From an archaeon (lineage in GTDB: Archaea; SpSt-1190; DYHY01), in contig JAZDJS010000033.1 of the NCBI GenBank assembly GCA_043803745.1, positions 1 to 19,417 of the forward strand: 19,417 nt of DNA. Reading direction: 5' to 3'. Position numbers and translations under genes: made by a program. A model generated the notes under the pieces. That model searched no databases. It had not been told where the DNA came from and worked only from the letters and a program-made list of their open reading frames with translations. Below are positions 432-19,133 of the stretch, piece after piece (the stretch's first letter is position 1; each line of letters starts with the position of its first letter).

Positions 432-2303
432 ATGGCAAGTAAAAAAGACGCTTCCGCTCCAGTCTCCCCGCCAGCAGCCCCTACCCTGGCTGAGATGGAT
501 TTCAACCCGGCAGGAAATTTCAGCGACGAGGCGCCGCCGGGCACCGACACTGGCTCGGGCGGCCCTTCCGGCCCCGTCGGGATAGGGGGTCCCGCAGTCG
601 TGAAATTCCTCGATGAAATAGACCTCCGCGCGATAATCGCAGACCTTGAGAAAACAAAGGCGGAAATCTCGGCCCTGAAGGAAATCAAGTTCAACGCGGA
701 TGCCCGGATAAAGGAGCTTTCCGAGGGAATCGGCGAGCTCCGGAGCATGAGCCTCCAGAGGGACCAGTCGACCCGCGAAGTCGAGGCGAAGGTCTCGAAA
801 ATGGAGGAGATTGTCAAGAACGTCCAGCCCCAGATAATACTTGCCGAGCTTCAGAAGCGCGAGCACGAGCTTGAGGCTACCCGCGCCCAGCTTGAGCGCA
901 CCACGATGATGCTCAACGAAACCATTTCCCAGGTAAGGGACATTCAAAAGTCGATGGAGCGGGTCCGCGGGATAACGAACATTCTTGACGTTGACAAGGG
1001 GCTTAACTCGAAGATCGGGAAGCTCGAGTCCCAGCTTGCCCTCGGGGAGCGGTTCTCGACAAAGGCTGAGAAGCTCTATTACGAAATCGACAAGAGGATG
1101 ACGGATTTCGCCGTGATGCGGGAGAAGCTCGAGCGGATAGACGCGCTTACGAAGGAGATAATGAGGGAGTTCGACGAGAAAAAGATAAAGCTCGGCGCCG
1201 CGGCTTCCGTTGACGAGTTCAACCTCTTCAAGCGGGAAGTCGAGGAAAAGCTCAACACGCTAAGGGAGACTTTGGAGCGCAGAGTCGCTTCGTCGGCAGC
1301 GCCGCAAAAGAACGGGAATGATTTCGGAAAAATGACTTCAATTAGCAGCCCAACAACGAAAGAAAATCCGGTTGTGGAGAAGCCCTTCTCAACCGAAACC
1401 GAGAGGCGGGAAACCGCTTCCGCGAACGTGCCCGAGCTGCTCAAACAGCGGGACGAGATAAAATCGATGCTCGCCCTCCTTGAGGAGGAATACCGGGAGG
1501 GGGAGATAACTGAAAAGGCTTTCGAGGAGGCGAGGCGGAACAGCGAAACCAGGCTTGCGGAAACCGAGAAGCAGATTGCGGAGGCATCAAGCCTTCCGGC
1601 AACCCCGGCGCGCACGATTCCTGGAAGCCCGCCTGAGCCGAACCGGGAGCCGCTTCAAGAGACTATCGCCCAAACCGCCCCGCCAATATCCCCGTCAAAG
1701 CTTCCGGCGGAGAACTCTTCCGAACTCAGGCCCCCTGCCACCCTTTTCTCAACCCTTCCGCCCGAACCCGAAGGCAAGCACAGCAACAAATCCAAAATTC
1801 CGCCCGAGAAGGGACCCGAGGAGCTGGAGAGGATAATCGAGATAATAACGAACCTCCCCGCCCTGCACGCCCAGGAACGCGACCTTGAGAGGATGCTCTC
1901 AATCCTCTCCCGCCAGTACAAGGGCGGCGTAATCAACGAGGAAACGTATTACGAAATCCGCCGGAAATCCGAGGAGAAGCTGGGGGAGCTGCGCGCAAAA
2001 CTCCTCGTCATCGAGAATCTCCACACCGAACAGAAGCTTTTCAAGGAGGAAATCCACAGGCTCAAGAGGAACAAGGCCGAGCTCGTTTCCTTGCTTGCCC
2101 TGCTCGACAAGCAGAGGGGCGAGGGGCTCGTTTCCGAGGAAAGCTATTCCTCCGCCAAGACGAACGCATCGGCGAAGCTGGGGGAAATCGACAAGCGGAC
2201 CGAGCTCTTGGAGAAGATAGTTGAGAAGCACATAGATGCCCCGCATCGGGAGAAACCGCCAGCGGAGAAGAAGGCCCACCACACCAAAGACAAGAAGGGC
2301 TAG
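432..2303 (+). CDS. Coiled-coil scaffold-like protein (623 aa) with three SHOCT/CdvA-like helical-hairpin repeats and Pro-rich linkers
   Basis: Long ORF. Pro/Gly-rich N-terminus, about 230 aa of E/K/L-rich heptad sequence, then three copies of L-x6-[IL]-x3-L-x9-G-x-[IV][STN]-x3-[YF]-x3-[KR]-x5-[KR]L at nt 1437-1577, 1863-2003 and 2061-2201. No signal peptide or TM segment seen. Confidence 0.85.
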   Translation: MASKKDASAPVSPPAAPTLAEMDFNPAGNFSDEAPPGTDTGSGGPSGPVGIGGPAVVKFLDEIDLRAIIADLEKTKAEISALKEIKFNADARIKELSEGIGELRSMSLQRDQSTREVEAKVSKMEEIVKNVQPQIILAELQKREHELEATRAQLERTTMMLNETISQVRDIQKSMERVRGITNILDVDKGLNSKIGKLESQLALGERFSTKAEKLYYEIDKRMTDFAVMREKLERIDALTKEIMREFDEKKIKLGAAASVDEFNLFKREVEEKLNTLRETLERRVASSAAPQKNGNDFGKMTSISSPTTKENPVVEKPFSTETERRETASANVPELLKQRDEIKSMLALLEEEYREGEITEKAFEEARRNSETRLAETEKQIAEASSLPATPARTIPGSPPEPNREPLQETIAQTAPPISPSKLPAENSSELRPPATLFSTLPPEPEGKHSNKSKIPPEKGPEELERIIEIITNLPALHAQERDLERMLSILSRQYKGGVINEETYYEIRRKSEEKLGELRAKLLVIENLHTEQKLFKEEIHRLKRNKAELVSLLALLDKQRGEGLVSEESYSSAKTNASAKLGEIDKRTELLEKIVEKHIDAPHREKPPAEKKAHHTKDKKG

Positions 2304-2415
2304 TTGCGGCGCCGAGAACCCCCGCCCACTTGACTTCCTTCGCCAATGCATTGGGGAGCAGTTCAGCCTGCTGGAAACTGCAAATCTTTAAATGCAAGCT
2401 TGGGGAACGAACACG

Positions 2416-3210
2416 ATGGTTCAAAAAACAAATTTTTCACCGAAGAAAGCGGGACAGCCTATTTTCCTAGTCCTTTCCGGGCTTGTCGCGATTTTCTCAA
2501 CAGCCTCAATTTTCTTCCAGCTTGGTGGGACTTTTGCATATAATCTCGCCCCAATCCTTGCGGCGCTCCTCTCGGTTTACGCGGCTTTCAAGCTCCTGAA
2601 ATTCAATTTCAACCTTGGCGACAGGAAAATAGGCAAGGTTCATTTCCTTTTCGCAGGGATAGCTTCCTGGGCAATTGCCGAGGGCGTCTGGATGATTTAC
2701 GACACGTTCTTTGGCTCCGAAGACTTCGTAGTGACCTGGGCGGACTTTTTCTGGTATCTCGGATACCCCCTGCTGATAGCGTACTTGTTCCTGCGGATAC
2801 TTCCGATTCTTTCAAGCTTCAGCCGGCGGGGCAAGATAACCTATTTTGTCGCTTTCGTCGCAACAATGCTCCTTTCATGGTATGCTCTGACAACCCTGCT
2901 GCTGAACAACCCGGATCTCTCAACGGCGGAAATTCTCGCGGCTGTCGGCTATGTAATCCTGGACGCAGTTGTGGTTTTTCTTTCCGGGAGCACGCTCATT
3001 TTCTTCCGGGGCGGGGCGCTTGCGAAATCCCAGGCGCTGGTTCTCGCGGGATTCGCCCTCTCGGGAATTTCGGACATGCTCTATTACTATCTCGGGGCGC
3101 TCGGAATCTATTCGACTGGGAACCTCATTGACCTCGGCTGGGTCATAAGCTACGTCCTGATAGGAATCGGCCTTGCGTACGAGCTTGCGGAACTCCGGAA
3201 GACAATTTAG
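2416..3210 (+). CDS. Polytopic membrane protein (about 8 hydrophobic segments), resembling a stand-alone membrane sensor domain
   Basis: Hydrophobic stretches throughout. GIASWAIAEGVWMIYD...TWADFFWYLGYPLL and D..YY....G.Y..G.LIDLGW..SY resemble N-terminal membrane domains of GGDEF/histidine kinase sensors, but no output domain follows. Start moved to ATG2416 because TTTAAA at 2387-2392 overlaps ATG2392. Confidence 0.75.
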   Translation: MVQKTNFSPKKAGQPIFLVLSGLVAIFSTASIFFQLGGTFAYNLAPILAALLSVYAAFKLLKFNFNLGDRKIGKVHFLFAGIASWAIAEGVWMIYDTFFGSEDFVVTWADFFWYLGYPLLIAYLFLRILPILSSFSRRGKITYFVAFVATMLLSWYALTTLLLNNPDLSTAEILAAVGYVILDAVVVFLSGSTLIFFRGGALAKSQALVLAGFALSGISDMLYYYLGALGIYSTGNLIDLGWVISYVLIGIGLAYELAELRKTI

Positions 3211-17815: not shown

Positions 17816-17843
17816 ATATGCAACCCGCACGGGTAACTTGGTT

Positions 17844-19133
17844 ATGGGAATTCCCCTGGATCGCGCGAAAATAATCGGAATTGTCTCTGGAAAGGGCGGC
17901 GTTGGCAAGACAACCCTTACGGCGAATATCGGGCTTGCCCTTGTCAAGGAATTCAGGAAGAAGGTCCTTGTCGTCGACGGGAACGTTACTTCCGCGAATC
18001 TCGGGCTCCATCTCGGATTTCTCTACCCCCCGACGACGCTACATGATGTGCTTGACGACCGGGTTGCGCCGGCGCAGTCAGTCTATATCCAGGAATCCGG
18101 GCTCCACGTTATGCCCGCTTCCCTTTCAATAAAGCGGAAGGCATATTATGAGAAAATCCGGGACAAGATTTACCAGCTTGTCGACAACTATGACTTGATT
18201 CTAATTGACGGCGCTGCAGGTGTCGGAGCCGAGGTAAAGGCGGTAATGCATGCCTGCGACGAGCTTCTCATTGTCACGACGCCCGAAGTCCCATCAATTG
18301 CGGGAGCAATAAAGGTAATTGAAACTGCAAAGGAGCTCCAGGTCCCTGTGCGGGGAATTGTCGTAAACGAATACAAGCGCCAAAAATTCGAAACAAGCGT
18401 CAGTGAGATTGAGACAACCTGTGGAGTTCCAGTTCTTGCGGTTGTCCCAGATGAGGTCGGGGTTCCCGCGTCAATTGCACACCGAGTTCCCCTCGTCCTT
18501 TACAGGCCGAATGATGAGGCTGCCCAAGTTTTCTGCAAATTGGCAGGAGTTCTGATAAATGAGAAATATAAGAGCAAAATAACGCTCTTTTCCAAGTTCT
18601 TAAAGACAATTGGCCTGAAAGACGCCCCGATTCAGCAGCCGGAAGTGAGAATGGATGAAAACTTCCGTTTCCTCAGACGGCAGACTGCCGGGGAACGCGA
18701 GGCAATGATTTACCAGGAAGCTGCAAAGGAGAAGCAGGCTGAGGAAAGGATTGGTTTCCAGGCGTCCCAAACAACTTCTCAGGCCTCCGAAGCTGAACGA
18801 GCAATTGACAGGCCTCTTCCGGAGCAAGAGCCCCGCCAGCCTTTTCCGGAGCGCGAAGCAATATCAACTGAAAAGCTGCACAATCTTGAAGGCGATATGG
18901 CAAGTCTCAGAAGGATAAAGGATCTTCTTGACAGCCAGGACCTTAATCTCAATTCGCTTGAATCCGAACTTACCAAGGTAAGGAAAATACTCCTGATTCT
19001 TGAAAGGGAATACCGGCAGGGACTTATTTCAGCTGAAAGCTATAGCGAGCTCAAGCAAGGAAACGAGCGGAAACTTGAGCAAATACAACAGAAAATGAAC
19101 CAAATAAAGGGCCAAGGCAATCAAAATGGCTAG
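17844..19133 (+). CDS. minD: MinD/ParA-family ATPase with a C-terminal extension ending in a SHOCT/CdvA-like motif
   Basis: Deviant Walker A SGKGGVGKTT, VLVVDGN, LILIDGAAG, VTTPE, GIVVN; amphipathic TLFSKFLKTIGL after the ATPase domain; then about 170 extra aa with the motif at nt 18957-19097. Confidence 0.9.
   Translation: MGIPLDRAKIIGIVSGKGGVGKTTLTANIGLALVKEFRKKVLVVDGNVTSANLGLHLGFLYPPTTLHDVLDDRVAPAQSVYIQESGLHVMPASLSIKRKAYYEKIRDKIYQLVDNYDLILIDGAAGVGAEVKAVMHACDELLIVTTPEVPSIAGAIKVIETAKELQVPVRGIVVNEYKRQKFETSVSEIETTCGVPVLAVVPDEVGVPASIAHRVPLVLYRPNDEAAQVFCKLAGVLINEKYKSKITLFSKFLKTIGLKDAPIQQPEVRMDENFRFLRRQTAGEREAMIYQEAAKEKQAEERIGFQASQTTSQASEAERAIDRPLPEQEPRQPFPEREAISTEKLHNLEGDMASLRRIKDLLDSQDLNLNSLESELTKVRKILLILEREYRQGLISAESYSELKQGNERKLEQIQQKMNQIKGQGNQNG

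Follow-up and report, generated by a model that had tools for sequence, protein, structure and literature searches.

A SHOCT-like helical hairpin shared by a candidate cytoplasmic scaffold and membrane-anchored surface proteins encoded beside SPEARE-type genes of DPANN archaea

DPANN archaea live attached to other cells. To our knowledge, little is understood of how their contact apparatus is built and placed, and no partners have been defined for the giant SPEARE proteins, which are the main candidates. We analysed a stretch of archaeal DNA, hereafter the window, that is the entire 19,417-bp contig JAZDJS010000033.1 (C33) of a 1.23-Mb genome in 51 contigs (GCA_043803745.1; 90% complete). The nearest relatives of this genome were labeled by their submitters as Candidatus Micrarchaeum, Candidatus Altiarchaeota, Aenigmatarchaeota, Pacearchaeota or "uncultured archaeon", all of them DPANN-type. 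We observed that one small helical hairpin recurs in the window in four proteins: a candidate cytoplasmic scaffold with three copies, a membrane-anchored surface protein, a MinD ATPase and a small basic adaptor. In several DPANN groups, a SPEARE-type gene is followed by three recurring genes that encode the scaffold, the surface protein and, often, a MinD. The presence of the same hairpin on the scaffold and on the tail of the surface protein offers a concrete hypothesis for how surface proteins might be tied to the cytoplasm, and the domains concerned are peptide sized. We propose, at roughly even chances, that the hairpin is a common docking module under the membrane, through which hairpins would pair with hairpins. 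The new elements are a longer SHOCT-like hairpin variant and a scaffold family that is unnamed in Pfam, NCBIfam, the Atlas and the source annotations, while the MinD and the SPEARE-type ATPase belong to known kinds. Genes and orthologues were taken from open reading frame (ORF) lists and BLAST, transmembrane (TM) helices were called with a simple hydropathy window, and every structure discussed here is a prediction.

The 623-residue scaffold (432-2303, plus strand), defined from its translation, its orthologues and an AlphaFold2 model, carries hairpins at residues 333-382 (1428-1577), 475-524 (1854-2003) and 541-590 (2052-2201), all on the plus strand. The aligned stretches of these three copies begin at nucleotides 1437, 1863 and 2061 (residues 336, 478 and 544), respectively. 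The basic, 184-residue adaptor (3207-3761, minus strand; translation and orthologues) has one hairpin at residues 89-138 (3348-3497, minus strand), aligned from nucleotide 3488, residue 92. The hairpin of the 1478-residue surface protein (3962-8398, plus strand) spans residues 1423-1472 (8228-8377, plus strand), starts in the alignment at nucleotide 8237, residue 1426, and ends six residues before the C-terminus. In the 431-residue archaeal MinD (17838-19133, plus strand), a long tail holds the hairpin at residues 371-420 (18948-19097, plus strand; aligned from nucleotide 18957, residue 374). A first-pass annotation, made from the sequence alone, had described a motif present six times in four unrelated proteins. 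The six segments lie where it placed them and align without gaps, with pairwise identities of 11 to 16 of 40 positions. Its list of conserved residues was also correct throughout: L1, [ILV]8, L12, [IV]24, [STN]25, [YF]29, [KR]33, [KR]39 and L40 occur in all six copies, G22 in five and Y19 in four. The carriers are otherwise unrelated to one another, and the motif is a real shared module.

These segments are helical, short and rich in Lys, Glu and Leu, and many of their weak Pfam matches are to unrelated coiled coils, as would be seen if the likeness were a chance or compositional one among charged coiled-coil segments. In a leave-one-out search, a profile built without any copy from one protein was run against the 18,143 six-frame ORFs of the genome. 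Each omitted protein was the best match outside the training set, with E-values of 3.7e-22 for the scaffold, 4.1e-10 for the adaptor, 6.9e-08 for the surface protein and 1.3e-07 for MinD, which excludes a chance likeness. Moreover, the copies are gapless and keep a fixed G-x-I-[ST]-x3-[YF] spacing, orthologous positions are conserved in 11 loci, and a profile of 45 copies matched only 559 of 1.84 billion representative proteins at E<=1e-3 (101 at E<=1e-10). The chance explanation is thus refuted and retains practically no probability.

The count of the first-pass annotation was right for the window and incomplete for the genome, where three more proteins carry the motif. A 206-residue protein on contig C47 has two copies (independent E-values, iE, of 3.3e-11 and 0.066), a 939-residue coiled-coil protein on contig C36 ends in one (iE 7.5e-12), and a rhomboid-like protein on contig C21 has a weaker one (iE 0.0068). 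The last of these (C21:67886-68992, minus strand) is a rhomboid-family intramembrane protease according to weak NCBIfam matches, and its partial copy lies in a cytoplasmic C-terminal extension. The region of the C36 protein (C36:33940-44952, locus L060) lies about 5 kb upstream of a giant ORF and encodes a protein with a weak class III signal peptide match, a 393-residue MinD/ParA-like ATPase, several proteins without a Pfam family, and the 939-residue, SMC-like coiled coil itself. Comparable long coiled coils with the motif occur in genomes G003 (815 residues) and G030 (930 residues). An endonuclease III ORF on contig C48 that matched the six-copy profile at E 0.027 was absent from the results of the 45-copy profile and was dropped as a chance match.

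In the AlphaFold2 model of the scaffold (79 sequences), each copy of the motif forms a helix, a five-residue loop with the Gly, and a second helix, at a predicted local distance difference test (pLDDT) value of about 95. The helices of copy 1 were modelled at residues 322-355 and 361-387. Those of copies 2 and 3 were modelled at 475-497, 503-563 and 569-602, the long middle helix being common to both, so that the two copies make up a three-helix unit. The linkers that separate the hairpin units have pLDDT values below 50. The C-terminal 300 residues of the surface protein were modelled as an immunoglobulin (Ig)-like sandwich, a three-helix stalk, a TM helix and the hairpin, whose helices cover residues 245-267 and 273-294 of this module at a pLDDT of about 90.

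Among the best 150 of the 559 matches of the 45-copy profile, classed by BLAST against parts of the window proteins, 89 carry the N-terminal domain of the scaffold and 22 are surface-type proteins with the motif at the C-terminus after a TM helix; 4 are adaptors, 2 are MinD proteins and 33 are other proteins or fragments. The motif family is thus largely limited to the scaffold and its surface partners. In the 89 scaffold representatives, 78 copies precede the N-domain and 82 first copies follow it, and most scaffolds have one copy on each side. In the family of the window (f1), three copies are found instead, all after the N-domain. On the surface side, a C-terminal cassette of Ig-like domain, stalk, TM helix, basic stretch and hairpin is joined to ectodomains of very different size, in proteins of 234 to 1951 residues.

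We then examined the neighbourhood of the motif in a comparison collection that includes 17 genomes from the phylum of the window, and in public records. Eleven loci had enough DNA: the window, L022 to L027 (same phylum plus one other family), and the public records L034, L035, L037 and L039; four further public records were the same contigs as L022 to L025 and were counted once, and L038 was too short. Each of the 11 loci encodes a motif-bearing scaffold together with a membrane protein that has the motif at its end. The ATPase gene lies upstream of the scaffold gene in 9/9 loci with upstream DNA, with one intervening gene in two of them, and a MinD is present in 7 of the 11. Over 41 genomes, the motif was detected in 15, the ATPase (E<=1e-40) in 12 and both in 10, in agreement with the proposed co-occurrence, although these genomes are related and the figures overstate its independence. 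The conserved cluster put forward in the first-pass annotation therefore stands as regards the scaffold, the tailed surface protein and MinD, which accompany a HerA/FtsK-type ATPase in DPANN archaea both related to this one and distant from it; it does not extend to the adaptor, which is confined to the family of the window.

Of the upstream ATPase, the window holds the C-terminal 125 residues (3' end of the gene at 2-382, plus strand), the remainder being off the contig. The ORF ends in a coiled coil and aligns with the C-termini of 8 orthologues at 47-57% identity. Its earlier description as a probable HerA/FtsK-like motor was borne out by the orthologues, which carry DUF87/HerA_C/FtsK and ResIII-like Pfam matches (L024, L025 and L026) and whose best PDB sequence matches are HerA chains. 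A hydrophobic helix precedes the P-loop by 40-60 residues in 6 of the 8 and was not called in L026 and L027 at the threshold used. The open frames of the ATPase gene in six relatives encode 14,695 (G005, C1:59104-61167), 5258, 5222, 4660, 4413 and 3110 residues. There are also short forms of 658 to 727 residues; an extracellular Ig-like part and a TM helix were found in the 692- and 727-residue forms, and no such helix was found in the 658-residue form. On contig C36 of the genome studied here, an ORF of at least 3814 residues that runs off the contig (C36:45198-56640) matches the ectodomain of the L025 orthologue. Moreover, the last 356 nucleotides of contig C9, read on the reverse strand, match positions 1-355 of the window at 90.4% identity, indicating that the 3' end of the giant-ATPase gene exists in two paralogous versions in this genome. 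Behind the C9 end comes an unrelated 783-residue protein that lacks the motif. In three genomes of the family, the assembly is interrupted immediately 5' of the scaffold gene.

SPEARE proteins combine a large Ig-rich ectodomain, a TM helix, a cytoplasmic HerA/VirB4/TraG-like ATPase and a C-terminal coiled coil, and the orthologues have this build. Relatives of the SPEARE cytoplasmic part have been reported in Woesearchaeota, Aenigmarchaeota, Micrarchaeota and Altiarchaeales, to go by the text available of the two published accounts (PMC6642349, PMC10266531). From this architecture and distribution, the motor reads as the cytoplasmic end of a SPEARE-type giant surface ATPase, which is a known kind of protein; the comparison was made by architecture and description. 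The suggestion of a possibly undescribed apparatus thus survives for the scaffold and the hairpin, of which we found no description in the literature searched, and falls for the motor (PMC6642349, PMC10266531, as far as their available text goes). The same accounts, in the parts seen, report another VirB4-like ATPase and a proteasome activator downstream of the giant genes of Nanohaloarchaeota, and differ from the present loci in that they mention no scaffold, tailed surface protein, MinD or shared hairpin. In locus L037, a 674-residue, DUF87/HerA-like second ATPase (L037:12680-14704) takes the place of MinD after the surface gene, which recalls the second VirB4-like ATPase downstream of the nanohaloarchaeal SPEARE genes. 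The ATPases and the tailed surface proteins appear alike in layout outside the membrane, with an Ig-like domain, helices and a TM segment, and are followed inside by the ATPase in one case and by the hairpin in the other (L024:10622-12700 and L035:7713-9896, compared with 7496-8395 of the window).

The constancy of the ATPase raises the possibility that the HerA/VirB4-like ATPase of the giant protein recognises its clients or regulators by their hairpin. In type VII secretion, FtsK-type ATPases recognise helical-hairpin substrates, a loose analogy for such a role. No other gene of the cluster is conserved as well as that of the ATPase, with 41-58% identity between groups compared with 22-33% for the scaffold outside its own family, and besides its regular place upstream of the scaffold the ATPase is accompanied by the motif in 10 of the 12 genomes that encode it. 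The hairpin tails are carried, however, by proteins whose ectodomains have signal-like sequences and which are not obvious secretion substrates; two ATPase genomes have no motif, and the protein next to the paralogous C9 end has none. We consider recognition by the motor to be very unlikely.

The motif itself is a helix-loop-helix of about 50 residues, which we classify as an extended, divergent SHOCT-like hairpin; a likeness to the coiled coil of CdvA is possible. Both resemblances had been put forward earlier and were observed here, but they are weak: all the Pfam matches fall under the cut-offs. The SHOCT-like families considered were PF09851 and PF20612. One of the six fragments matched SHOCT PF09851 (E 0.024, 14.8 bits), the best score in the genome of the window was 9.5 bits, and 6 of the 45 copies matched (best E 0.0049). 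No copy reached the cut-off of 27 bits, which orthologous tails in relatives approached with 24.3, 24.6 and 20.7 bits, and the four whole proteins had no SHOCT match at E<=1. An hhalign comparison of the 45-copy alignment with eight SHOCT sequences of the same phylum gave a probability of 90.6% over 31 columns, with a small template set from 3 genomes in which only 3 sequences exceed the Pfam cut-off. CdvA PF18822 (cut-off 30 bits) was matched below cut-off by 4 of the 45 copies (best E 9.9e-05) and by the scaffold of one relative at 19.3 bits; the best score in the genome itself was 8.7 bits. The commonest weak match was to GvpG PF05120, with 18 of the 45 copies (best E 2.5e-04; best in the genome 17.9 bits). 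This match stayed below its cut-off of 30.6 bits, and only the last 40 or so profile positions aligned. Another four copies matched SHOCT_2.

SHOCT domains were defined by two short amphipathic helices, a strongly conserved intervening Gly, and freedom from insertions and deletions, and their whole length lies within 50 residues of the C-terminus in 89% of cases (PMC3581485, available text). The hairpin likewise has two amphipathic helices, a short loop and a conserved Gly: Gly22 is found in 5 of the 6 window copies, the 45 copies align without gaps, and both AlphaFold2 models contain the hairpin. It also keeps the G-x-[IL]-[ST]-x3-[YF]-x3-K spacing of the eight local SHOCT sequences, is mostly C-terminal and occurs on unrelated proteins. 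It lies within 50 residues of the C-terminus in the surface protein, MinD, the adaptor and copy 3 of the scaffold, and not in scaffold copies 1 and 2. In contrast to SHOCT, it is about 50 residues long instead of about 28, both helices being longer; the Glu that stands just before the aromatic residue in the local SHOCT sequences is replaced by Ser, Thr or Ala; and it is found in tandem and internally in the scaffold, as a small family largely within one gene cluster.

The best structural match of the scaffold was with CdvA from Sulfolobus (PDB 9s9g and 9s9i; PF18822). Copies 2 and 3 (model residues 463-604) superposed on CdvA 65-197 with a Z-score of 11.5 over 128-131 residues, at a Foldseek probability of 0.98. 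According to the part of the report seen, the coiled-coil domain of CdvA makes longitudinal, head-to-tail hydrophobic contacts in the solved filament (bioRxiv 10.1101/2025.09.15.676241). No PRC-barrel, the N-terminal domain of CdvA, was found among Pfam matches of the four proteins up to E 1, and in the PDB neither the 45-copy profile nor scaffold residues 455-610 had a sequence match above chance level (E >=0.14 throughout). Foldseek with the whole scaffold model gave nothing at E<=0.001; the rows cover residues 459-606, so that the four-helix N-domain was barely probed. Copy 3 alone also superposed on the cytoplasmic helical domain of OST1 (ribophorin I) from Prometheoarchaeum (PDB 8whn), with a Z-score of 11.1 and a root mean square deviation (rmsd) of 1.6 A over 72 residues. 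Like the surface protein, OST1 is a single-pass protein with a large outward domain and a helical hairpin on the cytoplasmic side. The identity is 12%, however, and unrelated hairpins, such as those of the ESCRT-I core and the seryl-tRNA synthetase arm, fit nearly as well (Z 8.8-9.6), so the modelled resemblance of copy 3 to OST1 is one of common shape only.

How the hairpin would act as a docking module can be outlined as follows. Hairpin would bind hairpin, and the multivalent scaffold, with its one to three copies on flexible linkers, would link to itself in an assembly beneath the membrane. The scaffold would capture a single-copy partner, the cytoplasmic tail of the surface glycoprotein, and in family f1 only it would also capture the MinD ATPase, the small basic adaptor and the two-copy small protein. 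Such an assembly, beside a SPEARE-type giant protein with its cytoplasmic HerA/VirB4-like ATPase, may cluster or position envelope proteins, plausibly at the site of host contact. Several observations point to docking. A multivalent scaffold with linker-separated copies is encoded beside membrane proteins that have the same hairpin in their tail, and the motif family is concentrated in these two partners. By analogy, the CdvA domain that the tandem copies resemble is one that makes filament contacts. In addition, the integral membrane carriers, namely the surface protein and the rhomboid, need no anchor, so that membrane targeting there would not depend on the motif.

Copies within the four large classes have mean identities of 0.32-0.45; the value is 0.31 in the mixed "other" class and 0.66 for the 4 adaptor copies, and it is 0.25-0.35 when copies of different classes are compared. 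Copies are thus alike across classes of protein, as expected for one shared interaction surface. We also predicted a complex of scaffold residues 322-400 with the surface tail, which scored 0.39 in three runs, compared with 0.09 for the best of 3 controls; the partner had a pLDDT of 67 or more, and 95% or more of the contacts were common to the runs. Of 80 solved complexes, 58 reached the mark applied to this score, as did 2 of 110 mismatched pairs; with scores of 0.60 or less, it was reached by 7 of the 80 and by both mismatches (approximate counts, obtained with our own alignments). The predicted complex lends weak support to a pairing of scaffold and tail.

A number of points weigh against docking or against parts of it. 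A weak pass of this kind misleads more often than not, except where the pairing was already likely before the prediction, and the comparison of classes shows no sign of specific pairing. The first-pass annotation had taken oligomerisation by SHOCT as established, which it is not. In the available text of the defining paper, the one SHOCT domain that was tested, on another protein, gave no oligomer by size-exclusion chromatography (PMC3581485). The superposition on CdvA has an rmsd of 7.3-8.0 A at 9% identity, Z-scores below about 13 can be generic for helical models, and the PDB searches gave no sequence match to CdvA chains. The motif is also found outside the core cluster, in the rhomboid and the long coiled coil. 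Two genomes (G031 and G035) have the ATPase without the motif, and five have the motif without an ATPase match, of which G001, G013 and G016 are incomplete or cut there and G023 and G037 give weak matches. As for MinD, its recruitment through the motif had been overstated: the motif-tailed form does exist in 4 of the 11 loci, but all of these are of family f1 (the window, L022, L023 and L024), the MinD proteins of other phyla have no motif, and 4 of the 11 loci have no MinD. The adaptor is likewise limited to f1. In the window, moreover, MinD lies 9.4 kb beyond the surface gene, with unrelated genes between them.

The main rival to docking is a membrane-proximal anchor, in which each hairpin binds the inner leaflet and the carriers share a location but need not touch; the tail of MinD would then stand in for the amphipathic membrane-targeting helix of bacterial MinD. 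SHOCT-like domains have been predicted by comparative genomics to anchor disparate domains at the inner leaflet and to help assemble membrane-associated complexes (PMC11237479, available text). The first of these roles suits a SHOCT-like motif, and the soluble carriers (MinD, scaffold and adaptor) would gain membrane association, the tails of scaffold and adaptor being basic; the second overlaps with docking. The surface protein and the rhomboid are already integral to the membrane and still keep the motif, though. The hairpin is rich in acidic and basic residues with no obvious hydrophobic face beyond its own core, and simple anchoring would have no need of several copies on flexible linkers. 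We consider anchoring rather unlikely.

Short helical hairpins commonly form four-helix bundles, and the motif could instead serve self-association only, making a dimer or trimer of each carrier, for example by bundling surface tails below the three-helix stalk, with no binding across carriers. The modelled extracellular stalk of the surface module could oligomerise, and SHOCT domains mostly form the C-terminal part of known oligomeric proteins (PMC3581485, in the text available). Self-association leaves unexplained why the motif is concentrated in two neighbouring gene families, why the scaffold bears up to three copies on linkers, and why copies are as alike between classes as within them; the negative size-exclusion result also counts against it. 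Self-association alone is unlikely in our judgement.

The features of the carriers can be set beside the proposed docking module. The scaffold has a disordered N-terminus, a conserved four-helix domain (residues 65-288), its three hairpins joined by Pro-rich linkers, and a basic C-terminus. Copy 1 is kept in all the scaffold orthologues that were aligned. No Pfam or NCBIfam family was found for the scaffold, the adaptor or the surface tail. An Atlas search named only hypothetical DPANN clusters (best score 0.89, a lead only), and a homologue search returned 7 scaffold relatives, of which two are titled "hypothetical protein" and the rest are unnamed. The adaptor has a Pro/Glu-rich N-terminus, its single hairpin and a very basic tail with 20 Lys or Arg in the last 45 residues, and has orthologues in L022 and L023.

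The surface protein, described from its translation and hydropathy and the AlphaFold2 model of its end, begins with a signal-like N-terminus, followed by an ectodomain with Ig-like domains, a Thr/Gly-rich linker, the Ig-like sandwich, the three-helix stalk, a TM helix at about residues 1370-1393 (nucleotides 8069-8140), a basic juxtamembrane stretch and the hairpin. All of its 67 N-x-S/T sequons precede the TM segment and none follows it. Together with the signal-like N-terminus and the basic stretch after the TM helix, this suggests that the hairpin tail is probably cytoplasmic. A Foldseek search with the C-terminal module matched only generic Ig-like sandwiches.

MinD consists of an ATPase domain (residues 10-250), a low-complexity linker of about 120 residues and the C-terminal hairpin. 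It is an archaeal MinD with the GKGGVGKT Walker A motif, scoring 209.4 bits against TIGR01969 minD_arch (cut-off 201.75; E 4.9e-62; residues 12-249), and it matches Pfam CbiA/ParA/AAA_31. Bacterial MinD has a C-terminal amphipathic membrane-targeting helix. By analogy, the C-terminal appendage of the protein studied here would decide where the ATPase is located; it differs in being a linker followed by a hairpin common to envelope proteins instead of a short amphipathic helix, and in occurring in one family only.

If docking by hairpins is correct, it would assign a definite role, in one system, to the poorly understood SHOCT-like domains. Should hairpins turn out not to bind each other, the conserved cluster beside SPEARE genes would remain, as yet uncharacterised. 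Taken furthest, the data might reflect a DPANN-wide, envelope-spanning machine for host interaction built by a hairpin docking code, in which a CdvA-like scaffold polymer would gather the tails of variable adhesins around the SPEARE-type ATPase, MinD-family ATPases would set the site of the patch, and new surface proteins would join through the stalk-TM-hairpin cassette. We hold this extended model to be possible though doubtful.

Our literature search yielded no account of the scaffold family, of a hairpin common to a scaffold, a surface tail and MinD, or of these genes as neighbours of SPEARE genes, though the supplementary tables of Hamm 2019 and La Cono 2023 may list neighbours. The ARM-1 paper (PMC8784108), considered as a possible description of a conserved DPANN cluster, did not bear this out in its available text. 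The gene set of a putative secretion system (Makarova et al. 2015, PMC5898192) is, as far as seen, a different one, with MoxR and vWA proteins. A type IV pilus census (PMC4858521) and a study of DPANN coiled-coil proteins (bioRxiv 10.1101/2023.02.24.529834), in the parts available, concern pilus loci, and Pfam searches found no CpaF or TadC near the coiled coil on C36.

The other genes of the window include a 272-residue polytopic membrane protein (2392-3210, plus strand) with six hydrophobic windows in a hydropathy scan. It has orthologues in L022 and L023 at 29-32% identity, keeps its position in family f1 only, and had no Pfam or NCBIfam match. At the 3' end, the N-terminal 97 residues of a second MinD without the motif (19126-19416, plus strand; Pfam AAA_31/CbiA) are cut by the end of the contig. 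This protein continues on contig C47, where nucleotides 3-512 encode residues 86-256 of the orthologues at 78-84% identity, so that C47 reads as the continuation of the window and the two-copy, 206-residue protein belongs to its neighbourhood. In C47:3-2178, the remainder of MinD is followed by a 161-residue protein with a weak TrmB-like winged-helix match and then by the two-copy protein, an order that is also seen in two relatives.

In three f1 relatives and others, MinD lies directly 3' of the surface gene, indicating that the 9.4 kb between these genes in the window is an insertion. This segment encodes a HEPN-like protein, a nucleotidyltransferase, a HIT protein, a serine hydrolase, a nitroreductase, a major facilitator superfamily (MFS) transporter, a metallophosphoesterase and a TrmB regulator. 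Its first two genes (8478-9483), directly 3' of the surface gene, are a HEPN-like, 148-residue ORF and a minimal nucleotidyltransferase (Pfam NTP_transf_2), arranged as in a toxin-antitoxin pair; the HEPN call is a reading of the protein sequence, for which Pfam gave no match. Locus L039 has a comparable trio, placed between its scaffold and surface genes, and such pairs seem to have been inserted repeatedly into the cluster.

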